DNA from: a virus
Taxonomy: Duplodnaviria > Heunggongvirae > Uroviricota > Caudoviricetes
Virus record (IMG/VR): IMGVR_UViG_2718217868_000001
Coordinates: 1 to 40,101 of that record
Length of the DNA stretch: 40,101 bases
Strand: one strand, 5' to 3'
Shown here piece by piece: positions 1-40,101 of this stretch (positions are counted from its first letter, which is position 1; every line of letters starts with the position of its first letter). The notes beneath the pieces are model-generated. The model ran no database searches and was not told where the DNA came from. It saw only the letters and a program-made list of their open reading frames with translations. The translations under genes and the position numbers were made by a program.

Positions 1-201
1 TTACCCATTGGCGCGGCTTAAGAGCTTATTTTTGAATTCACAATGGTCACGATATAACCATCTTGCTCGCCCGTGGATAACTTTGGCTTTAGGCAGGTCT
101 CCGGACTTAATCCGGTCATAGATGAAGGTTTTACCGAAGCCAGTATCGGCCATGATGAATTTCAAATCAACCAGTGAATCAGGTTGTAGTTCGTGTTGCA
201 T
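1..201 (-). CDS. torI: Excisionase / recombination directionality factor, TorI-like (66 aa)
   Basis: Complete 66-aa ORF, stop codon at 1..3. The sequence matches my recollection of KplE1/CPS-53 TorI, a small winged-helix DNA-binding protein. It is the last gene of the leftward early operon. Confidence 0.75.
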   Translation of the reverse strand: MQHELQPDSLVDLKFIMADTGFGKTFIYDRIKSGDLPKAKVIHGRARWLYRDHCEFKNKLLSRANG

Positions 202-220
202 GAGTGCTATCTCCGAATAT

Positions 221-236
221 GGAATCGAACCTGCAA
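221..236. other. 16-bp segment identical to the T-arm region of the tRNA-Arg gene at 39033..39048
   Basis: Exact match ggaatcgaacctgcaa at both places, read directly from the sequence. The tRNA 3' acceptor end does not follow the copy at 221..236. Confidence 0.6.
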
Positions 237-245
237 ATCAGGCAA

Positions 246-266
246 GAAAAAACCGCATTGATGCGG
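246..266 (-). terminator. Putative intrinsic terminator on the minus strand between the 114-aa gene and torI
   Basis: Minus-strand hairpin ccgca/tgcgg followed by a TTTTTTCTT run. Confidence 0.4.
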
Positions 267-325
267 CAATGGTAGGTCTGGATATCTTGAGAAATGAAAA
301 TGCCACATCGAGTGTGAGACTGTGG

Positions 326-670
326 TTAGTCCTTGCGTAGCTCGCTGATTCTTCTGTAAGTCTCTGGTGCTTTGTTTCCGTGTATCTTCATTTCAGACTT
401 CAACAGAGCAACGAGGGAATCCCATTCGTTGAGGATGCCTTTGAATGCCGGAACGCGCTTTGCAACCTTGTCGAATGAATCCCTGATTTCTGGAATCTGC
501 TCAACAAGTGCAACGCATCGTCGGAAATCGGCTGCATCATGTGGAGCGCCGAAGTGATGACCATAGATATTCTTTTTCAGTCCACATGCGATTGAGGCAA
601 GAGTTGCGCTACTGATACCGACATCGCTAGTCGATTGCCATTTCAAAACCTTCATAGCCAAATCTGACAT
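326..670 (-). CDS. Hypothetical early-left phage protein (114 aa)
   Basis: ORF with a GGAGA ribosome-binding site upstream of the ATG; co-oriented with the early-left operon. No family recognised. Confidence 0.6.
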   Translation of the reverse strand: MSDLAMKVLKWQSTSDVGISSATLASIACGLKKNIYGHHFGAPHDAADFRRCVALVEQIPEIRDSFDKVAKRVPAFKGILNEWDSLVALLKSEMKIHGNKAPETYRRISELRKD

Positions 671-742
671 TTCTTATCTCCATAAAACAAAACCCGCCGT
701 AGCGAGTTCAGATAAAAGAAATCCCCGCGAGTGCGAGGATTG

Positions 743-1027
743 TTATTCAGTGCCGATATTCACCTTTATCGCGTACACCTTTACCGGTTTATCGCCGAAG
801 TGAGGATGTGTGATTGTCTTGATTTCATATCCGTCATACGGGACGTCAATTCTGCGGCTGGAATCGTCGCGCTTCGGATATCCCTTTGTGATAATCAGGC
901 GGTCATACTCCCGGAACATAATTCGCTTATTCCAGTAGTCATTACACAGGCGATACTCTTCCGTTTTCTCGCCCCGCTTCATCTGGTCGAAGTATTCGCC
1001 GTTCACTGCCAGTTGCAGATTAGCCAT
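743..1027 (-). CDS. Hypothetical protein, possibly ASCH/DUF3850-like (94 aa)
   Basis: Contains a GEKTEEYR motif resembling the ASCH-type GxKxxExR signature; its start overlaps the stop of the upstream gene. Confidence 0.5.
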   Translation of the reverse strand: MANLQLAVNGEYFDQMKRGEKTEEYRLCNDYWNKRIMFREYDRLIITKGYPKRDDSSRRIDVPYDGYEIKTITHPHFGDKPVKVYAIKVNIGTE

Positions 1028-1775
1028 TGTCAGCCTCCTGCTGCGGTGCTGCTGGTGCGGCGGCGAGCATTTTCGAGTAGCAATGCACTGTATTCAGCCA
1101 GAACCCAACCACCGATTGTCCAGCACGCAACATATCTTTTGTTGGGTCAATCGGAACAAGTTTCCATCCATTAGGAATTGGTGGGGTATTAACGCTTTCC
1201 TCCTGAAGCGCGGCAGCAGCTCGTTCCAAAAGCTCAGGTGATTTGATCTCTCCTTTTTCTCGAAGATATTTAGCCCTGCCGGTAAGCATGCAAATAAAAT
1301 CATCTGGAGACTTGTAAGTCGTCGTTACAGGCTCGTCACCCTGAAGTATGGCGGCGCGGCAGGCATCACTGCGAACTTCAATCCCCGCCTTATCCAACGC
1401 AAGCAACAAACCTCGTTCGCTGTCTCCGCAGTCGTCCAGTGTGTCATTGAGCACCGAAAGCGCTTTTTCGAAATCTTTATCGTGAATAGCGAGCACCACA
1501 GCCACCGCTGGCTGCGGTAACTGTGGTGCTGTGTAGAGTGGCGTAACACTGATTTCGTATTCGTTAATATCTTCATCGCTGATAGATGCATCAAAGCTTA
1601 AAAAGCCAGGTCTACCGAGACCACGGGCCTGTGCGTCCTGGATGATGTACGCCACAGCCTCAGCTTCGAGCGATGCCAGTGCGATACGCGCCAGCTCCCT
1701 TTCTTCTGACGCGGTTGGCTCAGGACCGTTGCCGAGGAAAATTTCTTGTGCGCGCTTTTTGGTAATTGTGCTCAT
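1020..1775 (-). CDS. Hypothetical early-left phage protein (251 aa)
   Basis: ORF with an AAGGAGAG ribosome-binding site; ATGA overlap with the upstream gene. Confidence 0.6.
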   Translation of the reverse strand: MSTITKKRAQEIFLGNGPEPTASEERELARIALASLEAEAVAYIIQDAQARGLGRPGFLSFDASISDEDINEYEISVTPLYTAPQLPQPAVAVVLAIHDKDFEKALSVLNDTLDDCGDSERGLLLALDKAGIEVRSDACRAAILQGDEPVTTTYKSPDDFICMLTGRAKYLREKGEIKSPELLERAAAALQEESVNTPPIPNGWKLVPIDPTKDMLRAGQSVVGFWLNTVHCYSKMLAAAPAAPQQEADNG

Positions 1776-2647
1776 GATGTCTCTCCTTTACCGGCTGCGG
1801 CGCGGTCTATGCGTTCAATTTCGGCCAGAATAAGTGCGCCAGCTTTCACAAGGTCACGACGCGGCCCAGATTGCTTCCACCAATCAGGAGCCCACGGCCA
1901 ATGCGCTGGCGTTGAGAGGCCTTGATTGTGTGCGTTAATCGCATAGCAAGCTGCAGCATCTGCCAGCTCACTGTTTTGATAGGCGTCGTCATGCTCCGAT
2001 GTCCAACCCTCAACAGCCCTCTGCCGCTGACGTTCTGATATCACATCCAGAAGTGCAGGATTGAACGCCAGCACCTCCAGTTCAGCAATCCGCTTCTCTG
2101 CGGCTTCCAGCTTCTCGCGCATATCGTCAACGTACTCGACCAGAGATCCGCCAGCAGGAATTTCGCATTCCTCGACCAGTTGGAAGTAGATATCAGCTGC
2201 GGCCCGTGTGTTGCTATGCCTAGCGTCGCCCATCTCACCTTCACGAAGAGCATCGCGTTCGGCGGTAAGATTGGCTATTTTGCTGTCTTTGCCTTCCAGC
2301 TCAACGCGCAGCTTCCCTACCGTTAGCGCAATTTCCTCGTTCTCCTGATCGCGGCGTTTTATGTATTGCTGGTTTCTTTCCAGCTCATCCAGCAGTGCCA
2401 GCACGGTAGCTGGACTGGCTGCGGCGATGAATTCAGCATTGGCCTGCTGTTCCATTTGGAAATCTTCATCGAAACCGCTTTCAGGATGCGCTCCTTCAAT
2501 TCTGCAAATGGGAATATATCCAGCAGCCTCGCGATGAATTAGGGCATCATCACCATCAAATCGGCTCTCTCCATATTCGAGCGACCACTCACCACACGTT
2601 GCTTTCTCTGCCTTGGCACGCAGTGCCTGATAGTCAATCTTGCTCAC
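1772..2647 (-). CDS. Ead/Ea22-like early protein (about 291 aa, GTG start)
   Basis: Likely GTG start at 2647 preceded by an AAGGAGG site (the six-frame ORF extends to 2839). N-terminus MSKIDYQALR and a coiled-coil middle are typical of prophage Ead/Ea22-like proteins; C-terminus carries a WPW..WWK motif. Confidence 0.55.
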   Translation of the reverse strand: MSKIDYQALRAKAEKATCGEWSLEYGESRFDGDDALIHREAAGYIPICRIEGAHPESGFDEDFQMEQQANAEFIAAASPATVLALLDELERNQQYIKRRDQENEEIALTVGKLRVELEGKDSKIANLTAERDALREGEMGDARHSNTRAAADIYFQLVEECEIPAGGSLVEYVDDMREKLEAAEKRIAELEVLAFNPALLDVISERQRQRAVEGWTSEHDDAYQNSELADAAACYAINAHNQGLSTPAHWPWAPDWWKQSGPRRDLVKAGALILAEIERIDRAAAGKGETS

Positions 2648-2867
2648 TGTTTGCCTCCTTTGCTCGCTGATTCCACTCTGCTCTAACCTCTGAATAAAAA
2701 ATCGCGCAGTCATTTCCAGGCGCTGCATATTTGCTACCAGATTGAGCGCGACACGTACCGCATCGAACGAAATAGAATCGACCGCCAGAGCCATATTCAG
2801 GGTGATCTGCTTCGCTGGCAACGTGCGCTGCACCGCCACAGAATGGACATGGTAGTAGGTTGCTCAT
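2634..2867 (-). CDS. Lar-family restriction alleviation protein (about 77 aa)
   Basis: N-terminus [12 protein letters not shown] plus a later CGTC motif fits the Lar (Rac prophage) Zn-finger anti-restriction family. Start from ATGA overlap with the upstream gene. Confidence 0.6.
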   Translation of the reverse strand: MSNLLPCPFCGGAAHVASEADHPEYGSGGRFYFVRCGTCRAQSGSKYAAPGNDCAIFYSEVRAEWNQRAKEANSEQD

Positions 2868-3442
2868 GAATGCACTCCCTTGTGAAGCTGTTCCGCACAA
2901 TGCAGCAGGGCGTCAGTCGCCTCTTTCACCGTAACGCAGTCGCCATCGTCCAGCCCGGACACCGACGCGTGCTTAACGAACGCCGCGCAAAGGTCATCAA
3001 ACGCCTTAGCCCGGACTTCAGTCAGGAAAGCATCGGTGGCTGGGGTGTCTGATTGCATAGACTTTGCGCGATAGTCATTCCACCCTCTTGCATACATGGG
3101 ATTAACTTGCACTCCATCTTTTACGCAATATGCCTGCCCTCCACGGTTGATAACCTTGATTTCGTCCATAGCGCCAGACTTCAGCCCCGCATTCTCCGCT
3201 GCCAGTGCCGAAAACTTCTCGTGTGCCAACTTAACAGCCGAATCAGCCTGCTTAATTGACTCAATCGCTTTCTGTTGGTCTTCGGCCAGCGCCAAAATCT
3301 TGGCCTCCGCTTCAGCAAATTTACGCACCAGATATTCAGCGTTTGTTTCGTTAACATTTAAATCTCGTGGGATGCATTTACCTTTCAGAAAACCATCCAT
3401 CTCAATTAGTGACATTTGTTTCATTTCTTCCCACTCCGCCAC
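2864..3442 (-). CDS. Hypothetical early-left phage protein (192 aa; start uncertain)
   Basis: Long ORF in the operon orientation; several in-frame candidate starts (3442, 3424, 3415). Confidence 0.5.
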
Positions 3443-3585
3443 ATCGCATTCAGATATTTGTTTTGATTCACTGATGGAAACGAGTTTCGCTTAAGCAATT
3501 CCTCTCTCGATGGCATTGGCTTTACGCGTTGGCGAATAATCATTTCTGCCGGAAGAATGCCGGGATTGTATGCAAGTCCTCTCAT
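3421..3585 (-). CDS. Hypothetical small protein (54 aa)
   Basis: ATG at 3585 preceded by a GAGGA site; the six-frame ORF 3421..3735 overlaps the upstream gene. Confidence 0.4.
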
Positions 3586-3595
3586 GGTAAATTCC

Positions 3596-3889
3596 TCAGT
3601 CATTACTGATAGCGCCATAGCGTGAGCGGTAATTACGCAGGCGCGGGTCAATTTCAGGGAAGTGGGTATATGTGGCTTTGCGGAATGGTCGGATTGATGT
3701 CTGGTAAATTCGCTCGCGTTCTTCTTTCTCTGCAAGCCATATACAGTGGCGAAATTCCTTTTCCTCTTTCGTTTCCTGCGGTAGCGACATTATCCGGTCG
3801 TAGTTTTTCCTGAATTTATCCAGCACCTCCGATACGGAATTGCCGGAACAGCGGCGTGGGTCATCCGCACCATACAGAGGCGCTGGCAT
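3596..3889 (-). CDS. Hypothetical early-left phage protein (97 aa)
   Basis: ORF with an AAGGA site upstream. Confidence 0.5.
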
Positions 3890-3912
3890 AATTAAATCCT
3901 TATTTTTCTAAA

Positions 3913-4296
3913 TCAGAATGGGATGGAATCGTCGTATACAGGAGTGTTCTGCTGGTTACTACTTTGCTGCTGCGGGCCATTTCCTGAAGCTGCAAATCCA
4001 ATCTTTGCATTCAGTAATTCAAGAGTGATTGATTGACCATTTTGCCCCTGATAAACATCAACCCTGATGTTTTCTCCGGTAATTTCCACAATGCCACCTT
4101 CAACAAGAACACTACGGTAGTAATCCGCTTGCGCTCCCGGCTTGGCAAATACAACGGCGCTGTAGTTTGTCCATTCTTTCTTTTTTGTCTGGCGATCGTA
4201 ATACTGAACGCCAGCACGGATGTTGAATCCGATATTTTCCCCGGTCTGAAACTCTCTTGCGGGCTTGTTTAGTCTTACAGTAATCGAATGTGCCAT
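3913..4296 (-). CDS. Phage single-stranded DNA-binding protein (SSB-like, 127 aa)
   Basis: Acidic C-terminal tail ending DDSIPF, like the SSB DDDIPF tail; lies immediately downstream of erf. Confidence 0.7.
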   Translation of the reverse strand: MAHSITVRLNKPAREFQTGENIGFNIRAGVQYYDRQTKKKEWTNYSAVVFAKPGAQADYYRSVLVEGGIVEITGENIRVDVYQGQNGQSITLELLNAKIGFAASGNGPQQQSSNQQNTPVYDDSIPF

Positions 4297-4901
4297 TAAG
4301 CAGCCGCTCCTTCTAATTCGTCTCGTCTGATGTTGTAAACGTCCTGCGCTTTGTGCTGCTCCGGTGTGCCTTCAAGCATCTTCCACGCTTTGGCGAACGC
4401 CTGTTTAAGCTCTTCTACGGTGTTTTTTTGCATTGCTGCGTCAGTGAATGCTTTTAGAACCTGTTCAGGTGTAGGTGATGGTTTTGATTGCTTTGCTGCT
4501 GCGTTCTGCTGATGTTTATGCTCGTCGGTATCTGCATCTTTCGCATCATCAATGCCGAATAAACCATTGAGGCAATACTTGCGTGCATAAGAGCTTGTAG
4601 CTCCCGTAACTTGTGCAGAATCCATTCCTTTCTTGCTTTCTTCCTCTCGTGCAAGAGCGGTTGCTTTATGGCTGTTTTCGCCATCGGTAATAGTTGCCGT
4701 GGCTTTCACGTAATACCGATCACCAATCAACACAACTTCATCGCTGATTGATAAAAACAGACCATTCAGTAACGGCTTAACGCCTTCAAGAATATCTTCG
4801 CAGCTTCTGTATTTATATTTACCGAATGAGTTGTACTGATTTTTTGGCGCGTTCAGATTCTCCTGAATGGCTGCCAGTCTTGCGTAAAATTCTTTGCTCA
4901 T
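4296..4901 (-). CDS. erf: Erf-family single-strand annealing recombination protein (P22 Erf-like)
   Basis: MSKEFYARLA..NQYNSFGKYKYRSCEDILEGVKPLL closely resembles P22 Erf as I recall it. Start placed at MSKEF (the six-frame ORF extends to 4931). Confidence 0.85.
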   Translation of the reverse strand: MSKEFYARLAAIQENLNAPKNQYNSFGKYKYRSCEDILEGVKPLLNGLFLSISDEVVLIGDRYYVKATATITDGENSHKATALAREEESKKGMDSAQVTGATSSYARKYCLNGLFGIDDAKDADTDEHKHQQNAAAKQSKPSPTPEQVLKAFTDAAMQKNTVEELKQAFAKAWKMLEGTPEQHKAQDVYNIRRDELEGAAA

Positions 4902-4990
4902 ATGTTTGTTCTCAGAATGGACATGGCCCAAGGAAATAACGCTGATTTAATACTTCGGTCTTTGCCGCATTTAAAAAGACGCGAACACCT

Positions 4991-5161
4991 TCACGATCTC
5001 CCTTCTGGCGATACATTAACGCCTGCTGCGTGTACATGCGTCTCTGTAACTTGCTCTCCTTCACTGTGGTTGCAAGTGACATGAATATCTCCTTCGTTAC
5101 CGATTAAATCTTTCATCTGACGAATGAATTCTTCGTCTGACCAGTTATCTGTAAAACTCAT
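4991..5161 (-). CDS. Small early protein at the P22 arf position (56 aa)
   Basis: ATGA overlap with the kil-like stop; located between the kil-like gene and erf. Confidence 0.4.
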   Translation of the reverse strand: MSFTDNWSDEEFIRQMKDLIGNEGDIHVTCNHSEGEQVTETHVHAAGVNVSPEGRS

Positions 5162-5310
5162 TTCCTGCGATACCACGGAAGGTTGATGACTGATTTCATC
5201 GCTTTATTTGCTTCAAGCCACATTTTTGAATCACCAATAAATCTGGCTATTACTGCTTTGTTCTGTGCAGCACGAAGCATCTGGTGATTGATGGCTATTT
5301 CATTGCGCAT
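5158..5310 (-). CDS. kil: Kil-like small protein (50 aa)
   Basis: 50-aa ORF immediately after cIII with an ..FIGDSKM.. motif reminiscent of lambda Kil. It falls below the 60-aa cut-off of the ORF track. Confidence 0.45.
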   Translation of the reverse strand: MRNEIAINHQMLRAAQNKAVIARFIGDSKMWLEANKAMKSVINLPWYRRK

Positions 5311-5426
5311 AATAAGACCTCAACTCTTTTCCATCCGTCACGTAATTTACGGGTGATTCGTTCAAGTAAAGATTCATTTAGTTGGAAGGCACCCATGCGA
5401 GCGCCTCCCGCGATTGCGTAAATCAT
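5295..5426 (-). CDS. cIII: CIII-like protease (FtsH) inhibitor (43 aa)
   Basis: MIYAIAG..SLLERITRKLRDGWKR matches the lambda CIII core (ESLLERITRKLRDGWKR); AAGGAA site upstream. Confidence 0.8.
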   Translation of the reverse strand: MIYAIAGGARMGAFQLNESLLERITRKLRDGWKRVEVLLCAMK

Positions 5427-5450
5427 GGGTGGTTCCTTATGTTGGTTTTA

Positions 5451-6419
5451 TTAGTAGGTTATTTTTGTTGCGAATACTTCGCCTTTTACGATGGCTGTTA
5501 TGATATTTTTAGCAACATCTTCTGATGCACCAACCTTGATAAGGTCAGCAAGTATTTTGTTATTTACTTCTTTCCGGTGAGCTTTATCCTTTGCTCTGCG
5601 CTCTTCTTCGTCCTTGATTCTTTTTTCTTCTGCTATTCTGGCTTGCTCTTTTGCTTCAGCATCGCGACGGATTTGTTCAGCCTCCTCCTGTGCTTTTCTG
5701 CGTTCTGCTTCAATTGCTGCCTGCTTTTCTCTTTCAGCTCGTTCTGCTGCCTCTTTTGCTTCGCGCTGTGCTCGTTGCTCGGCTTCAATGCGTTCACGCT
5801 CTGCACGTTCCGCTGCGGCCTTAGCTTCTGCTTCTCGCCTTGCTGCTGCTTCAATTTCGGCTTTTGCCTTTGCTTCGGCTTCTGCTCTGGCTTTCTCTTC
5901 AGCTTCTCTTTTTAAGCGCTCTTCATGCTCTCGCTTTTCCCGCTCCGCTTTGAGTCTTGCCTCTTCTCTTTGGCGGTCAAATTCGCGATCCATCAAAATC
6001 GCTATTTCATGGTCAGACTCAATTTGCTTTGCGAGAGCTTCAGCTGCTGCCTTAGCTTCTTCTTCGGCTTTAATCCGCGCCTGTTCTTCCTCATAATCAG
6101 TAAGAGGCTGGCGTGCCTTGGCTTTCAGCTCATCAAGGCGATCACGCACTGTTTTGCGGTTGGCATCAATTAGCTTTGGAATTTCCTTCAGTTCAGCAAC
6201 AAGGTCTTTGCCAAGACCATCGAGATATGTTTTCGTCTGCGCAACTTTATACGCCAGAGAAGCGATCTCCTTTCTGCCCTTTGCCGTTGTGATATCAGGC
6301 ACAAAGGACATAACTTCACGTTCAACCTTTTGAAGGATTTCTTCAATCTGGTCGGCAGACTGAAATACAGTCATTGCATTTGCTTTTTCAATAACAACTA
6401 AATCTGTTACTTCACTCAT
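5451..6419 (-). CDS. Charged coiled-coil protein with a TolA-like E/K/A/R-rich central region (about 322 aa)
   Basis: Start placed at ATG 6419 with a GGAGGA site (the six-frame ORF extends to 6473). About 170 residues of AEEKA/REAEA low-complexity helical repeat flanked by ordinary N- and C-terminal segments. Confidence 0.6.
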   Translation of the reverse strand: MSEVTDLVVIEKANAMTVFQSADQIEEILQKVEREVMSFVPDITTAKGRKEIASLAYKVAQTKTYLDGLGKDLVAELKEIPKLIDANRKTVRDRLDELKAKARQPLTDYEEEQARIKAEEEAKAAAEALAKQIESDHEIAILMDREFDRQREEARLKAEREKREHEERLKREAEEKARAEAEAKAKAEIEAAARREAEAKAAAERAERERIEAEQRAQREAKEAAERAEREKQAAIEAERRKAQEEAEQIRRDAEAKEQARIAEEKRIKDEEERRAKDKAHRKEVNNKILADLIKVGASEDVAKNIITAIVKGEVFATKITY

Positions 6420-6431
6420 ATATCCTCCATC

Positions 6432-6458
6432 AAAAAAATCGCCCTCACATTGGAGGGC
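6432..6458 (-). terminator. Putative intrinsic terminator (minus strand) downstream of the AT-rich cassette
   Basis: Hairpin gccctc/gagggc followed by seven T on the minus strand. Confidence 0.5.
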
Positions 6459-6551
6459 AAAGAAGATTTCCAATAATCAGAACAAGTCGGCTCCTGTTTA
6501 GTTACGAGCGACATTGCTCACATAGCAGACTCGCAAATCTGCTATAGGTGC

Positions 6552-6713
6552 TTATTCGCATCGCATGACAACATCAAATTTTTCGAGATTACTTTGTCGC
6601 AACAATCCTTCTTCTACGCGGTCAGCTTTTCTATAATTATCAAATTCGAAATGTTTAATTACTTCTTTCGTTTCTCGCTCTATAACTTCAACAATGTATT
6701 TCTTATTCATCAT
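6552..6713 (-). CDS. Hypothetical small protein (53 aa), last gene of the AT-rich early-left cassette
   Basis: ATGA overlap with the stop of the 98-aa gene; AT-rich; below the ORF-track cut-off. Confidence 0.4.
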   Translation of the reverse strand: MMNKKYIVEVIERETKEVIKHFEFDNYRKADRVEEGLLRQSNLEKFDVVMRCE

Positions 6714-7006
6714 TCTTCCCCAAGAGCTTTTCTGATTGCTGCAAGACCTTTATTAACAGCTCCATACCATTCTGGATATGTTGTCTTTGTTCTATTTTTG
6801 GTTTGCTTAAGTAATAACTGAAGTGCTTCGAGAAGGTCAGGTGCTGCCGCTATTAGATTGGCATCTTCAATGCATTGAACTTCCTCACAGATTGCAATAT
6901 ACGAACGCCAGCCTGCGCCATTTTCAAGTGAGTCTGCCTGGATGATTTTAATCTCATCGCCATCCATCATTATTTCCCACTTACCTTCAGTACCTTTAAA
7001 TTCCAT
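6710..7006 (-). CDS. Hypothetical protein (98 aa), AT-rich early-left cassette
   Basis: ORF with a GAGG site; low GC compared with its surroundings. Confidence 0.55.
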   Translation of the reverse strand: MEFKGTEGKWEIMMDGDEIKIIQADSLENGAGWRSYIAICEEVQCIEDANLIAAAPDLLEALQLLLKQTKNRTKTTYPEWYGAVNKGLAAIRKALGEE

Positions 7007-7052
7007 GTTAGCCTCTGTTGTTTATGCCAAAAATAAAGGCCGACTATGCGTC

Positions 7053-7523
7053 CTAGTAGAATACCCAATTTTCTGTTTCTTGGTTGTGTCCAAAGTTATA
7101 TTCAATATCTGGTGTTGATGTATCAATATTCTTCATCCCATCAACAAGAGTTGATACAACAGCCAAATCTTGTTTGATTCTCATTAAATGGTATTTCTTC
7201 CGGCGCAATAAACTCTCAATGGCAAGTTTCTTCGTTGGGAATGCAAAAGATCTTTCTGCATTTTTTGCTACTTTCTTAATTGCATATCTATTTCTCCTTT
7301 GTTTCCATTCCCGTAACCACTGATTTGGTGCTGGTTTAAAATCAACAATCCAATGCGCAGGAACCAACCATGCATAATGCTCTGTCTGATGAAAAGCTAT
7401 ATATTGAAGTGCGAATATTTTGATTCCATCTTCTTCAACTGTCGCTTGGAATCTCCAGAAAACAGGCATTCCATCATGTTCAGTTTCTGATTCAGGAAAA
7501 GGTACGCTCCATGATTTTGTCAT
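7053..7523 (-). CDS. Hypothetical soluble protein (156 aa), AT-rich early-left cassette
   Basis: ORF with a GAGGTGAG site; no transmembrane segment; no family recognised. Confidence 0.6.
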   Translation of the reverse strand: MTKSWSVPFPESETEHDGMPVFWRFQATVEEDGIKIFALQYIAFHQTEHYAWLVPAHWIVDFKPAPNQWLREWKQRRNRYAIKKVAKNAERSFAFPTKKLAIESLLRRKKYHLMRIKQDLAVVSTLVDGMKNIDTSTPDIEYNFGHNQETENWVFY

Positions 7524-7577
7524 ATCTCACCTCAAATAAGTGGTTTGCTGCGAAAGTAAATACGCTTAAGTTACCTG

Positions 7578-7715
7578 TTATTTATCCCACCAAGTTCCGT
7601 ATCTATCTATCCAGTTACACCAATCATCGACACTCCATTTTGTTGTGTCGCATTTTGGCAACTGGCATGAATATCTACCTTCTTTGTAAAGTCGGCGTTT
7701 GACTTTCTTGAGCAT
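7578..7715 (-). CDS. Hypothetical small Cys/Trp-rich protein (45 aa) immediately downstream of N
   Basis: GAGGTGAG site then ATG at 7715; contains a CQLPKC motif and a C-terminal tryptophan cluster. Confidence 0.4.
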   Translation of the reverse strand: MLKKVKRRLYKEGRYSCQLPKCDTTKWSVDDWCNWIDRYGTWWDK

Positions 7716-7723
7716 GGCTCACC

Positions 7724-8056
7724 TCAATCGTAATAAGCTGGAATTGATTTTCCGCGTTGCTTCTGGCGGCCTGAGCAAGTCACACCCATTTCACAGCGTG
7801 GCTTGCTGTACCATGTGCGCTGATTCTTGCGCTCAATACGTTGCAGGTTGCTTTCAATCTGTTCGTGGTATTCAGCCAGCACCGTAAGGTCTATCGGATT
7901 CAGTGCGCTTTCTACTCGTGATTTCGGTTTGCGATTCAGCGAGAGAATAGGGCGGTTAACTGGTTTTGCGCTTACCCCAACCAACAGGGGATTTGCTGCT
8001 TTCCATTGAGCCTGTTTCTCTGCGCGACGTTCGCGGCGGCGTGTTTGTGCATTCAT
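7724..8056 (-). CDS. N: Antitermination protein N (lambda N-like, about 110 aa)
   Basis: MNAQTRRRERRAEKQAQWKAANPLLVGVSAKPVNRPILSLNRKPKSRVESALNPIDLTVLAEYH.. is near-identical to lambda N including the arginine-rich motif. Start at 8056 (the six-frame ORF extends to 8146). Confidence 0.9.
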   Translation of the reverse strand: MNAQTRRRERRAEKQAQWKAANPLLVGVSAKPVNRPILSLNRKPKSRVESALNPIDLTVLAEYHEQIESNLQRIERKNQRTWYSKPRCEMGVTCSGRQKQRGKSIPAYYD

Positions 8057-8166
8057 CTGGATTCTCCTGTCAGTTAGCTTTGAGTAACGCGCCGTGATGC
8101 TTATCTCCACGGTTGCTGTCTTGCAGCTGCATTTCGCGCTACTCAAAGCCTTCTGCTTTGAATGCT

Positions 8167-8196
8167 GCCCTTCTTCAGGGCTTAATTTTTAAGAGC
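8167..8196 (-). promoter_or_regulatory. nutL (boxA plus boxB) N-utilisation site
   Basis: The minus strand reads GCTCTTAAAAATTAAGCCCTGAAGAAGGGC, which matches lambda nutL boxA and boxB. Confidence 0.85.
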
Positions 8197-8236
8197 ATCA
8201 CCTTCATGGTGGTTAGTGCGTCCTGCTGATGGCTAA

Positions 8237-8265
8237 ATAGTACGATTTGTACTTTATCGAGTCAA
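8237..8265 (-). promoter_or_regulatory. pL-like early-left promoter with an overlapping operator palindrome
   Basis: Minus strand -35 TTGACT, 17-bp spacer, -10 TACTAT. The palindrome AGTACnnnnnGTACT (8239..8253) lies in the spacer. Confidence 0.6.
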
Positions 8266-8328
8266 TACAAAATGTTCTAAATATAATTGGTTTTTTATAA
8301 CGCTTTGTATTTAATGGGTTTATATTTT

Positions 8329-8360
8329 GGAAAAAGAAAACCCGACACTAAGGTCGGGTT
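8329..8360 (-). terminator. Intrinsic terminator downstream of cI
   Basis: Hairpin acccgac/gtcgggt followed by a TTTTCTTTTT run on the minus strand, directly after the cI stop. Confidence 0.6.
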
Positions 8361-8390
8361 ATTGTTGTGTGCTTTAGAGTGGTGAGGCTG

Positions 8391-9044
8391 TTAACTAAAT
8401 GTCTCTTCAGGCCACTGGCTGGCGATAACTTTCCCTACAACGGAACAGCTATCATTGCATGGGATCATTGGATATTGCGGGTTTAGTGGCTGTAGGAACA
8501 CCTGACCGCTATCCCTGATCAGTTTCTTGAAGGTAAACTCGTCACCACCAAGTCTGGCTATGCAGAAATCACCTGGCTCAACAGCCTGCTCAGGGTCAAC
8601 GAGAATTAACATCCCGTCAGGAAAGCTTGGCTTGGATCCTGTTGGCGCGGTCATGGAATTACCTTCAACTTCAAGCCAGAACGCACAATCACTGGCTTTT
8701 TTGGTTGTGCTGACCCATCTCTCCGCATCACCTTTGGTAAAGGTTCTAAGCTCAGGCGAGAACATCCCGGCCTGAACATGAGAAAAAACAGGGTACTCAT
8801 ATTGTTTTTTAACGGGGGCAGATGAGTATTCGCCAACAGGTGAAAATGTACCGTCGTGGTTGAATGAGACGTTATCAATACCAAGGTATTTAAACACCAC
8901 ACCAATCTCGTCAAGAGATGGATGACGAGATCCGCGCAACCAGTGACCAATTCCACCCTGCGTCATACCAAGCTCTTCAGCTAACTTCTCTTGAGTTATG
9001 CCGAGCTCTTTCATTCTGGATCTAGCCAGTTCATACCATTTCAT
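8391..9044 (-). CDS. cI: CI-type prophage repressor with a lambda-like C-terminal S24 autoprotease domain and a heterologous N-terminal HTH domain
   Basis: The C-terminal ~135 aa (..[36 protein letters not shown]..) is nearly identical to lambda cI; the N-terminal ~80 aa is an unrelated XRE-type HTH. Start at 9044 or 9050 (the six-frame ORF extends to 9092). Confidence 0.85.
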
Positions 9045-9106
9045 TTTCATACCCTTATTATTACGCTCTGTACTAAAATCATCCATGCACAAGATGTATT
9101 TTTTGT

Positions 9107-9135
9107 TTGCATTCTAAAAGTACATATCGTATTAT
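9107..9135 (+). promoter_or_regulatory. PR-like rightward early promoter
   Basis: -35 TTGCAT, 17-bp spacer, -10 TATTAT, about 25 bp upstream of cro; inverted GTAC half-sites nearby. Confidence 0.55.
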
Positions 9136-9161
9136 TGTTTCATGGTTACTATGGAGGGCAT

Positions 9162-9377
9162 ATGAGCAACCTACGAAAATATCGAGAGTCACTGAATATC
9201 TCTCAAACAACACTTGCTAAGGCAGTTGGATGCACACAGGGAGCTATCGGACATTGGGAATCTGGTCGTCGCTTCCCAGACCTTAAAACATGCCGTGCTC
9301 TTGTTGAGTGCCTAAACAAGTTAGGCGCAAAAGTCAGTCTTGATGACGTGTTCCCGCCGGAACACAAAGTCGCTTAA
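9162..9377 (+). CDS. cro: Cro-like HTH repressor (71 aa)
   Basis: GGAGGG site then ATG; XRE-type HTH with a TQGAIGHWESG helix similar to the cI N-terminal domain; divergent from cI. Confidence 0.8.
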   Translation: MSNLRKYRESLNISQTTLAKAVGCTQGAIGHWESGRRFPDLKTCRALVECLNKLGAKVSLDDVFPPEHKVA

Positions 9378-9386
9378 GACATTCTA

Positions 9387-9417
9387 GCTCTTACACATCA
9401 CAGCCCTGAAAAAGGGC
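9387..9417 (+). promoter_or_regulatory. nutR (boxA plus boxB)
   Basis: GCTCTTACA followed by GCCCTGAAAAAGGGC, matching lambda nutR; the tR1-like region follows. Confidence 0.85.
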
Positions 9418-9496
9418 ATCAAATTAAACCACACCTATGGTGTATGCATTTATTTGCATACATTCAATCAATTGTTATCTAAGGAAATACTTACAT

Positions 9497-9775
9497 ATGC
9501 AACTTACAAGTACTCGCAAGAAAGCGAATGCAATTACAAGCAACATCCTGAATCGAATTGCTGTACGTGGCCAGCGAAAGGTTGCTGATGCATTAGGGAT
9601 CAATGAATCGCAAATTTCGCGATGGAAAGACAGCTTCATCCCAAAAATGGGAATGCTTCTGGCTGTTCTTGAATGGGGTGTTGAAGACGAGGAGTTGGCG
9701 GAACTGGCTAAGAAAGTAGCCAGAATGCTGACAAAAGAAAAAGCCCCGAAGAACGGCGAATTCTTCGAGGCCTAA
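9497..9775 (+). CDS. cII: CII transcriptional activator (lambda CII-like, 92 aa)
   Basis: ..GINESQISRWKDSFIPKMGMLLAVLEWGVEDEELAELAKKVA.. closely matches lambda CII; AAGGAAA site; start at 9497 within the six-frame ORF 9437..9775. Confidence 0.85.
   Translation: MQLTSTRKKANAITSNILNRIAVRGQRKVADALGINESQISRWKDSFIPKMGMLLAVLEWGVEDEELAELAKKVARMLTKEKAPKNGEFFEA
9731..9770 (-). terminator. Minus-strand intrinsic terminator inside the cII 3' end (oop-like antisense RNA terminator)
   Basis: The minus strand forms a 10-bp stem CCUCGAAGAA/UUCUUCGGGG followed by a U-rich tract; the position is analogous to the lambda oop RNA terminator. Confidence 0.45.
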
Positions 9776-37699: not shown

Positions 37700-38893
37700 T
37701 CACTCCACCTTTTCATCAAGCCAGTCCGCCCACCACTGCATCATTTCTCTGCGCTTGTCGAGATACTGAGCATGGTTGTAAATCCCGCGCACAGATCCGC
37801 CGTTGGCATGTGCAAGTTGCACTTCAATAGCATCAGCAGGCCATTCGTGCTCGTTCATAATCGTGCTGAATTCATGCCTGAATCCGTGACCGCTTTCCAG
37901 ACCCTCATAGCCGATTTGTTTGATCACAAGCAATACCGCGTTCTCGCAGATTGGCTTCTTCTTATCGTTGCGCCCGGCAAAAACAAACTCTGATACTGGT
38001 TTAGTGATGGAGCTTAGCGTAGTGAGAAGTTCAACTACCTGGTCCGACATCGGAACCACATGAATTTTGCGTCCCTTCATCACACTGGCGTCGATGGTGA
38101 TAATCCTGTTTTCAAAATCGACGTTCTTCCATAGCATGGAACGAAGCTCTTTTGTTCTGAGGGCTGTGTAGCGTAAAGCTTTGGTCGCAATGAGCGATAC
38201 GATACTTCCTGAAAATGTTGCCAGTGCTTTGTTGAATGCCGGGATCTGGTCTGCAGGAAGAAACGGGAAGTTCTTCTTGCGGTATCCCTTCATGGCGTCA
38301 GCAAGGTCAGGTGCCGGGTTATATTTAGCCCTTCCGGTGACAATAGCGTAACGGAAAACCTCTCCGCATCTTCTGCGGGCTTTGTTGGCTCGCTCAATTG
38401 CACCGCGATCTTCAAATCTGCGGATTACTTCCAGCAGTTGCATCGGCTCAATATCCTGAATTTCAAGGCTGCCGATGATAGGTAAAATGTCGTCATCAAA
38501 CATTTTGGCAAGTTCAGTTGCATAGCCTACTGACCAGACTTGCTTCTTGTGCTCGTACCATTCCTTGTAAATGGCACTAAAGGAATTGTTGTTAGACGAA
38601 GCCTTTTTCGCTTTTACCGGATCGATGCCAACCGAGATGTCTTTCCTCGCGGTCCATGCTTTATCCCTTGCCTCCTGCAAAGTCATAAGCGGATATTTTC
38701 CGACGGTCAGGATTTTCTCCTTACCGTCAATCTTGTAGCGAAGCTGCCATACCTTTTTCCCTGATACAGGGACATAAAGGTACAGGCCATTACCATCGAG
38801 TAGGCGGTATGGTTTTTCTTTCGGCTTTGCTGCTTCAATCTGCTTAACGGTGAGCATGGGTAAAAATCCGGTGGGTAAAATTATTTTATCCAC
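37700..38893 (-). CDS. intS: Tyrosine integrase (KplE1/CPS-53 IntS-type)
   Basis: 397 aa; C-terminal catalytic motifs HGFRHEF and ..VRGIYNHAQY; adjacent to and transcribed away from the tRNA-Arg gene. Confidence 0.9.
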   Translation of the reverse strand: MDKIILPTGFLPMLTVKQIEAAKPKEKPYRLLDGNGLYLYVPVSGKKVWQLRYKIDGKEKILTVGKYPLMTLQEARDKAWTARKDISVGIDPVKAKKASSNNNSFSAIYKEWYEHKKQVWSVGYATELAKMFDDDILPIIGSLEIQDIEPMQLLEVIRRFEDRGAIERANKARRRCGEVFRYAIVTGRAKYNPAPDLADAMKGYRKKNFPFLPADQIPAFNKALATFSGSIVSLIATKALRYTALRTKELRSMLWKNVDFENRIITIDASVMKGRKIHVVPMSDQVVELLTTLSSITKPVSEFVFAGRNDKKKPICENAVLLVIKQIGYEGLESGHGFRHEFSTIMNEHEWPADAIEVQLAHANGGSVRGIYNHAQYLDKRREMMQWWADWLDEKVE

Positions 38894-39032
38894 TTTTTAC
38901 CCGTCATGGAGTGCGGCTGTCAACGATCTGACGCGAACCATTACGAACTGTGAATCTACGGAAGGCTTGATATTCAGGGGATTTTGCGGACTGGTACGGA
39001 TGAGAGCGAACTGATAAATGGTGTCCCCTGCA
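38894..39032. promoter_or_regulatory. Prophage-host junction (att region with probable integrase promoter and arm sites) overlapping the tRNA 3' end
   Basis: Position between int and the tRNA; exact core and crossover are not determinable from one junction. Confidence 0.5.
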
Positions 39033-39093
39033 GGAATCGAACCTGCAATTAGCCCTTAGGAGGGGCTCGTTATATCCATTTAACTAAGAGGAC
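39019..39093 (-). tRNA. argW: tRNA-Arg (anticodon CCU), argW-type
   Basis: 75-nt minus-strand sequence GTCCTCTTAGTTAAATGGATATAACGAGCCCCTCCTAAGGGCTAATTGCAGGTTCGATTCCTGCAGGGGACACCA with a cloverleaf and CCU anticodon. Confidence 0.9.
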
Positions 39094-39168
39094 AATGCGG
39101 CATGAGTATACCCGCTAATGGAGTGCGGGGTAAGTACGCTGCCGCTCGATTGCTTAAACCCTCGCCAT

Positions 39169-40101
39169 TTATGCCGGGTTTTTATAATTTTTCTTAATGT
39201 TTTCCGCACGTTCTGCTTTTTGGCGTGCTTCTGCTTTACGCTTATTGCTCATGTCGTTACGAATCTGTGCATGACTCATTAACGCGAAGATAAAGGTGCC
39301 GCCGCAGATGTTCCCCGCTAAAGTAGGTAGTGCGAAGGGCCAGATGAAATCGCTCCAGTGCAGCGTACCGTTAAACACCAGATAGAGGATTTCAACAGAA
39401 CCGACCACGATATGGGTGGTGTCACCCAGGGCAATAAGCCAGGTCATCAATATAATCACCACAATCTTTGCCGCACCCGCTGCAGGAAACATCCAAACCA
39501 TAGTGGCGATCAGCCAGCCGGAAATGATCGCGTTGGCAAACATCTCGCTGGGGGTGTTCTTCATCACATCCATGCCGATTTTGACAAATGCATCGCGAGT
39601 TTCTTCATTGAAGATAGGCATATATTCAAATGCCCACGCCGCAATACCTGTCCCGAGAATATTACCCAGCAGCACGACGCCCCATAACCGTATAAGTAAG
39701 CCGACGTTGCTCATTGTCGGTTTTTGCATGACGGGTAGTACCGCAGTCACGGTATTTTCGGTAAATAATTGCTGGCGGGCCATAATGACGATAATAAAAC
39801 CAAAGGTATAACCGAGATTCTCCAGCAAGAAGCTGCCCGGCACACCTTCCAGTTCGACATGAAATATCCCTTTTGCCAGTAACGAAGCGCCCATCGACAG
39901 ACCCGCCGCAATGGCTGACCACAGTAGCGCCATTGCGTCGCGTTCCAGCTCTTTTTCACCATCCTGGCGGATATGCTCATGAATTGCCATCGCCCGGGAG
40001 GGGAGTCGGTCTTCATCTATTTCTATTTTTTTGCCGCGCTCTTTTTCTTCGCTCTCAACTTCAATTTCGTCGCTGTGTTGATCAATTTTGTCGTTGTCCA
40101 T
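39169..40101 (-). CDS. yfdC: Inner-membrane transporter of the formate/nitrite transporter family (YfdC-like), host gene
   Basis: 310 aa starting MDNDKIDQHSDE.. with multiple transmembrane helices; sits beside argW as in E. coli. Confidence 0.8.
   Translation of the reverse strand: MDNDKIDQHSDEIEVESEEKERGKKIEIDEDRLPSRAMAIHEHIRQDGEKELERDAMALLWSAIAAGLSMGASLLAKGIFHVELEGVPGSFLLENLGYTFGFIIVIMARQQLFTENTVTAVLPVMQKPTMSNVGLLIRLWGVVLLGNILGTGIAAWAFEYMPIFNEETRDAFVKIGMDVMKNTPSEMFANAIISGWLIATMVWMFPAAGAAKIVVIILMTWLIALGDTTHIVVGSVEILYLVFNGTLHWSDFIWPFALPTLAGNICGGTFIFALMSHAQIRNDMSNKRKAEARQKAERAENIKKNYKNPA

Follow-up and report, generated by a model that had tools for sequence, protein, structure and literature searches.

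The closest described relative of the protein analysed here is Lar of the Rac prophage (RalR, b1348) of E. coli K-12. As far as King & Murray (1995) is represented in the papers that cite it (PMC11482910, PMC4041452), Rac Lar is the only member of its family to have been assayed for restriction alleviation. Guo et al. (2014; PMC4041452) described the same protein as a Mg/Ca-dependent non-specific DNase toxin that is neutralised by the small RNA RalA; in their hands RalR was toxic and cleaved DNA in vitro, and it is said not to inhibit restriction-modification. Mutations at C14, T37, Y39, R49, N51 and K52 lowered its toxicity, and K52Q abolished DNase activity (PMC4041452). The NCBI name for RalR is 'endodeoxyribonuclease toxin'. 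A preprint describing a knockout screen (PMC11482910) noted an effect of a 'Lar' homologue from phage Bas63 in strains without intact type I systems, a result taken, speculatively, to implicate type IV systems in place of type I. Our search for literature on Lar function returned papers that cite King & Murray (1995), the report on the RalR toxin and this one speculative remark, and nothing further. [quoted passage not shown]

We analysed a 40,101-nucleotide stretch of phage DNA, here called the window, which is a P22-like (Lederbergvirus-type) prophage. Over 2500..3000, the 501 bases tested, it matches at 100% identity a prophage present in E. coli H6 and H5, where dsdC flanks it on one side and tRNA-Arg/yfdC on the other, and phages HZ41, Dewey and IME10 share about 97% identity with it over long stretches. 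A TorI-like excisionase sits at the left prophage end (window 1..201), next to dsdC, and the integrase IntS at the opposite end (about 37700..40101), next to tRNA-Arg and yfdC; from these two ends it follows that the window covers the whole prophage together with argW and yfdC. Excisionase and integrase at opposite ends fit the arrangement known from KplE1, HK620 and Sf6, in which attP lies between int and xis.

The lar gene belongs to a long series of minus-strand genes. The series begins with a CI-type repressor gene (8391..), followed by a PL-like promoter called by consensus scan (TTGACT-17-TACTAT, 8265..8237, between the repressor gene and N), N (7724..8056), an AT-rich four-ORF cassette (6552..7715), a terminator-like site (6460..6439), a 322-aa coiled-coil protein, cIII and kil. 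After kil come the genes for Erf, an SSB-like protein, Abc2, a DUF2737 protein, an EaE-like protein (PHROG 614) and Lar, and after Lar those for an Ead/Ea22 protein, two further ORFs, an ASCH protein, terminator-like sites (741..690) and xis. Lying on the same strand as, and downstream of, the PL-like promoter, N, cIII, kil, erf and abc2, the gene does occupy the early-left position in which the earlier note had placed it. We found no strong minus-strand terminator-like site between 6460..6439 and 741..690, and this result, together with strand and gene order, places lar in the N-antiterminated leftward early operon. The transcript that reaches it is presumed to arise at the PL-like promoter.

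Two parts of this operon deserve separate description. The cassette at 6552..7715, which the earlier note had singled out as a candidate, has 35–40% GC and consists of four small ORFs immediately after N, the place that ral takes in lambda; the ORFs match only DUF5484 and PHROGs to which no function is assigned. PADLOC, run on Lar, its neighbours and this cassette, returned no matches. Between the cassette and cIII, the 322-aa protein (5451..6419, minus strand) matches PHROG 1376, also of unassigned function. Its central part is repetitive, extremely rich in Glu, Ala, Lys and Arg and likely to form a coiled coil, and a strong AT skew within 5451..6419 reflects the repeat. The counterpart in phage HF4s is annotated 'similar to phage phi80 Agt; Gam antitoxin protein'.

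The lar gene spans 2634..2867 on the minus strand (234 nt; 77 codons and a TGA at 2636..2634) and is a genuine protein-coding gene of this prophage, with a single-domain product of 77 aa. In the mechanically produced ORF list the frame is open back to TTG 2900. We prefer ATG 2867 as the start because the N-termini of homologues align there, because the Pfam match starts at residue 3, and because PGAP makes the identical CDS call in E. coli H6. A Shine-Dalgarno sequence, AAGGGAG (2881..2875, minus strand), can be read directly from the sequence 7 nt before this ATG. A profile built from 58 homologues matched a single one of the 763 six-frame ORFs of the window, namely the Lar ORF (E = 5.9e-31). 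Comparison with a Serratia homologue gave a pN/pS of 0.30 (pN 0.27; pS 0.87, with synonymous sites saturated), which indicates purifying selection in the Lar frame. This was the one usable comparison, codon-substitution counts among close relatives (97–99.6% identical) being uninformative.

The start codon of lar (2867..2865) overlaps the TGA (2866..2864) of the upstream gene, the product of which ends ...KGVHS*; the resulting ATGA (2867..2864, minus strand) is again read directly from the sequence. That upstream neighbour encodes the EaE-like protein and occupies 2864..3424 on the minus strand by the PGAP start, its ORF being open to GTG 3442; it has no assigned function. Because its stop overlaps the lar start, translation of lar is likely to be coupled to it. 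The earlier note had described ATGA coupling to both neighbours, and on the downstream side this did not hold. There the 291-aa Ead/Ea22-like protein (1772..2647, minus strand; Pfam PF13935, 102 bits) starts at GTG 2647, with an AGGAGG at 2659..2654, and its gene covers the last 14 nt of the Lar ORF. The GTG start is assigned from the Ead_Ea22 match, which begins at residue 2, from the identical PGAP call in E. coli H6 and from the reading frame. Coupling between lar and this gene is plausible.

The ribosome-binding site and start of the downstream gene are thus embedded in the tail of lar, and this tail is variable. Among copies of lar that are 97–99% identical, the last five or so codons (2634..2650) differ, giving C-termini EANSEQD, EATSERN, EATSECISY and EATSERKKND, and the variants track which gene follows (compared with the 3' ends at loci L005, L006 and L007). 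This covariation with the downstream module points to a mosaic recombination junction inside the lar tail.

Assignment to the Lar family is solid at the level of sequence comparison. The earlier note had proposed a search against the family profile, and Pfam PF14354 (Lar_restr_allev) matches the ORF over profile positions 2–58 of 58 with 38.5 bits (E = 1.4e-09), above the gathering threshold of 28.6 bits; the score of RalR with this model is 53.5 bits. A match to PHROG 599, 'Lar-like restriction alleviation protein', has an E-value of 8e-13. With TIGR03655 (anti_R_Lar), a narrower subfamily model of NCBIfam, the ORF scores 29.4 bits, under the trusted cut-off of 39.6. Relatives with 44–73% identity to the window protein (P0007, P0011 and P0042; 28.8–34.1 bits) also fall under it, and RalR scores 55.3 bits. 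Pairwise similarity to RalR is low (26% identity over 42 aa by BLASTP), and alignment of the 58-sequence family to RalR by hhalign gave 97.6% probability and E = 2.9e-12 over 55 columns. We are highly confident of gene and family membership taken together.

The translation of 2634..2867 contains the CPFCGG...CGTC motif that had first drawn attention to it, within the fuller set L-x-P-C-P-F-C-G, V-x-C-x-x-C and W-N-x-R. All invariant or near-invariant columns of the family are present (L4, P6, C7, P8, F9, C10, G11, C36, C39, W65, N66 and R68). Six of them, C7, P8, F9, C10, C36 and C39, are invariant in the 58 homologues; W65, N66 and R68 are kept in 54–57 of the 58 and align to RalR W50, N51 and R53. 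The predicted zinc ligands are C7, C10, C36 and C39. A segment specific to this subfamily, G51-N52-D53-C54, adds a fifth conserved cysteine.

An AlphaFold2 model from the 58-sequence alignment (mean pLDDT 83, pTM 0.68) has three strands (14–20, 30–36 and 46–48) that form a zinc-ribbon-like sheet, and a helix (55–65). In this model W65-N66-x-R68 falls at the C-terminal end of the predicted helix and just past it. The best structural neighbours in BFVD are predicted structures annotated Lar (TM 0.6–0.74). A sequence search of the PDB with the window protein found nothing (best E = 1.2), and Foldseek of the model against the PDB found generic zinc ribbons only (best E = 0.23). Our search for a solved structure or a known partner of any Lar-family protein found neither, which counts against reading a Lar-type function into the protein.

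The family is large. An exhaustive profile search yielded 1,484 cluster representatives at E <= 1e-3, or 185 when the limit was set at E <= 1e-10. Many representatives are 100–350 aa long and carry the Lar domain at the N-terminus, followed by unrecognised sequence. When ten of the long proteins were scanned for informative fusion partners, DUF551 alone was recognised; at least two proteins, P0016 and P0027, are in-frame fusions of Lar to a C-terminal DUF551. Their Lar parts are 100% and 55% identical, respectively, to this subfamily, and the fusions are independent. Fusions and long proteins together suggest that the Lar ribbon is used as a module. An apparent Lar-Ead fusion (P0020) was discarded as a frameshift into an alternative frame.

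Homologues occur in the early regions of temperate phages and prophages of Serratia, Kluyvera and Sulfitobacter. In a prophage of Kluyvera sp. Nf5 (L013 5001..5288), a 73%-identical homologue is found among the early-right (nin) genes, past the O and DnaB-type replication genes, with an Ead_Ea22 gene close downstream and one small ORF between them. lar and ead seem to travel together between the two early operons. A prophage of the marine alphaproteobacterium Sulfitobacter (L012 2789..5237) has a 44%-identical Lar gene in its early region, two small ORFs downstream of a gene for a 567-aa C5 cytosine DNA methyltransferase, a neighbourhood that is a possible hint of a tie between Lar and DNA modification.

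What might such a protein do? Taking gene, family and function as one statement, we lean slightly towards an early zinc-ribbon protein that would modulate host type IA restriction-modification as Rac Lar does. If Rac Lar (King & Murray 1995) and its functional analogue lambda Ral are a guide, synthesis of the protein would begin soon after infection or prophage induction. Its target would be a type IA restriction-modification enzyme of the host, similar to EcoKI; by binding the methyltransferase core, the protein would bias this enzyme to de novo methylation, away from cleavage, and unmodified phage DNA that is replicating, recombining or superinfecting would thereby be protected. The four cysteines would coordinate a zinc ion with a structural role, and the W-N-x-R motif beside the C-terminal helix may form the functional surface.

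This reading is favoured by the PF14354 and PHROG 599 matches, the homology to RalR, the invariant columns, the Lar-like model, the RefSeq name of the identical protein, the purifying selection in the Lar frame, the early-region location of homologues and an early position that mirrors Rac. For type I restriction alleviation as the actual activity of the protein, we put the chances close to even, though not quite there, since restriction alleviation is here extrapolated from one distant relative, Rac Lar, the function of which is itself disputed. Several observations weaken it. The sole assayed member shares 26% identity with the window protein over those 42 aa. The window protein falls below the TIGR03655 cut-off and differs from RalR by two insertions (8 and 9 residues) and the fifth conserved cysteine. 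PMC4041452 denies inhibition of restriction-modification, and the Bas63 result (PMC11482910) hints at type IV systems.

The alternative that survives best is that the protein is a Lar-fold ribbon with a role unrelated to type I enzymes, binding DNA or a different host protein, which could belong to some other defence system or act in recombination or replication. Lar would then be a small adaptor that travels with Ead/Ea22 and DUF551 modules. We regard this as a substantial possibility, but one with the odds against it. The size and diversity of the family (its 1,484 representatives, many with long unrecognised C-terminal parts) are in keeping with it, as are the recurring in-frame DUF551 fusions (P0016, P0027), the repeated occurrence of the gene beside Ead/Ea22 genes in either early operon, the divergence of the subfamily to below the TIGR03655 cut-off and the hint of a non-type-I target in the Bas63 screen (PMC11482910). 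In its sharper form, it says that the subfamily with the G-N-D-C insert does not act on type I enzymes and that CPFCG, CxxC and WNxR make up a portable adaptor, associated with Ead/Ea22 or DUF551, for some other host defence or DNA-metabolic target. We consider this version rather unlikely, although the score under the TIGR03655 cut-off and a glutamine at the position of RalR K52 raise it. No positive evidence favours any specific alternative target, and of the phenotypes seen by experiment in the family, only restriction alleviation suits an early gene of a phage. Moreover, the core held in common with Rac Lar (CPFCG, CxxC and WNxR) suggests that the two proteins have a surface, and perhaps a partner, in common.

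That homology could also be read the other way, with the window protein a RalR-type DNase toxin of a type I toxin-antitoxin pair, cutting DNA non-specifically and restrained by an antisense small RNA. Toxicity and in vitro DNA cleavage have, after all, been reported for RalR (PMC4041452), and NCBI names it accordingly, but we hold this to be very improbable for the window protein. The RalR equivalog model NF007260 (cut-off 113 bits; RalR 166 bits) did not match at E <= 0.01. A RalA homologue was not found in the window by blastn, which returned only chance 10–13-mers, and no Rfam family matched in 1..9500 at E <= 1, though an antisense RNA unrelated to RalA is conceivable. In the hhalign alignment, RalR C14, T37, Y39, R49, N51 and K52 align to G12, S43, S45, E64, N66 and Q67, and four of these six toxicity-linked positions differ (C14 to G12, Y39 to S45, R49 to E64 and K52 to Q67). 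The glutamine that is native at the K52 position is the substitution that makes RalR DNase-dead. The missing NF007260 match, the missing RalA homologue and the four changed positions together weaken the toxin explanation, and the gene lies inside a lytic early operon rather than in a stand-alone addiction module.

The idea that the Lar frame is not a real gene, and that the region instead encodes the N-terminal part of an extended Ead/Ea22 protein in a different frame (ORF 1772..2839), has hardly any chance of being right: that frame is open from GTG 2839 through the Lar region and the GenBank records of phages HF4s and HK106 annotate the extension without Lar, but the Ead_Ea22 Pfam match begins at residue 2 of the GTG 2647 product, where there is a perfect AGGAGG, a significant family match exists for the Lar frame and none for the extension, purifying selection is seen in the Lar frame, PGAP and the Salfasec13b record both call Lar, and other genes follow the same lar elsewhere (DUF7739 or a small hypothetical gene in related E. 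coli prophages, HNH in Serratia), so that the long frame is not conserved. On family match, start site, non-conservation and selection we judged the longer ORF already refuted. In the HF4s (L001 3029..3841) and HK106 (L005 1529..2539) records, the Ead/Ea22 CDS is stretched 5' in the other frame over Lar (window 2647..2839, minus strand), and these extensions look like annotation errors in the phage records.

The gene is correctly recognised here, and it is already known. RefSeq lists the identical protein (WP_072018156.1, from E. coli H6) under the name 'Lar family restriction alleviation protein', and Pfam, NCBIfam and PHROGs all have entries for the family, so that the finding carries little weight as a discovery. 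The allele is present in 47 of 5,426 complete E. coli genomes, named Lar family in all rows listed, and 12 phage records carry the protein at >= 95% amino-acid identity; among the phage records inspected, Salfasec13b names it Lar-like and HF4s and HK106 leave the gene unannotated. As a practical point, several GenBank phage records (HF4s, HK106) miss lar and over-extend the Ead/Ea22 ORF. The broader interest lies in the family name. The label 'restriction alleviation' on more than 1,000 diverse Lar-domain proteins rests on a single experiment of 1995, with a distant member and a result later disputed, and a direct test of a divergent member such as the window Lar would show whether the name can be trusted.

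Comparison with the known systems bears on such a test. Lambda Ral, a small protein expressed early from PL, relieves type IA restriction in that it stimulates de novo methylation, and the same role is presumed for Lar. The Ral proteins of lambda and P22 (PF11058; 66 aa) are similar in size to the window Lar, but there is no sequence relationship. PF11058 matched neither the Lar ORF nor any of the four cassette ORFs next to N (the model gives lambda Ral 162 bits), and a tblastn search of the whole window with the lambda protein found nothing. In a phage that lacks a lambda-type Ral, a Lar function would not be redundant, and such a phage offers a clean background for testing it. The positions in the operon differ as well: lambda ral lies just downstream of N, whereas the window lar lies about 4.9 kb further down, with the AT-rich cassette in the ral slot. 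Among zinc beta-ribbon folds, Elf1-type and other generic zinc ribbons count among the nearest known systems.

Rac offers the closer parallel. RalR, like the window protein, is a small single-domain protein with a CPFCG...CxxC ribbon and a C-terminal W-N-x-R. It is somewhat shorter (64 against 77 aa); relative to it, the window subfamily has an 8-residue insertion between the two knuckles and a 9-residue insertion, with the G-N-D-C segment, after the second. In Rac, ralR follows recE-recT in a leftward early operon, and the window lar is likewise downstream of erf and abc2, which are recombination and anti-RecBCD genes; beyond this point the two arrangements part, rcbA coming after ralR in Rac and the Ead/Ea22 gene after lar in the window.
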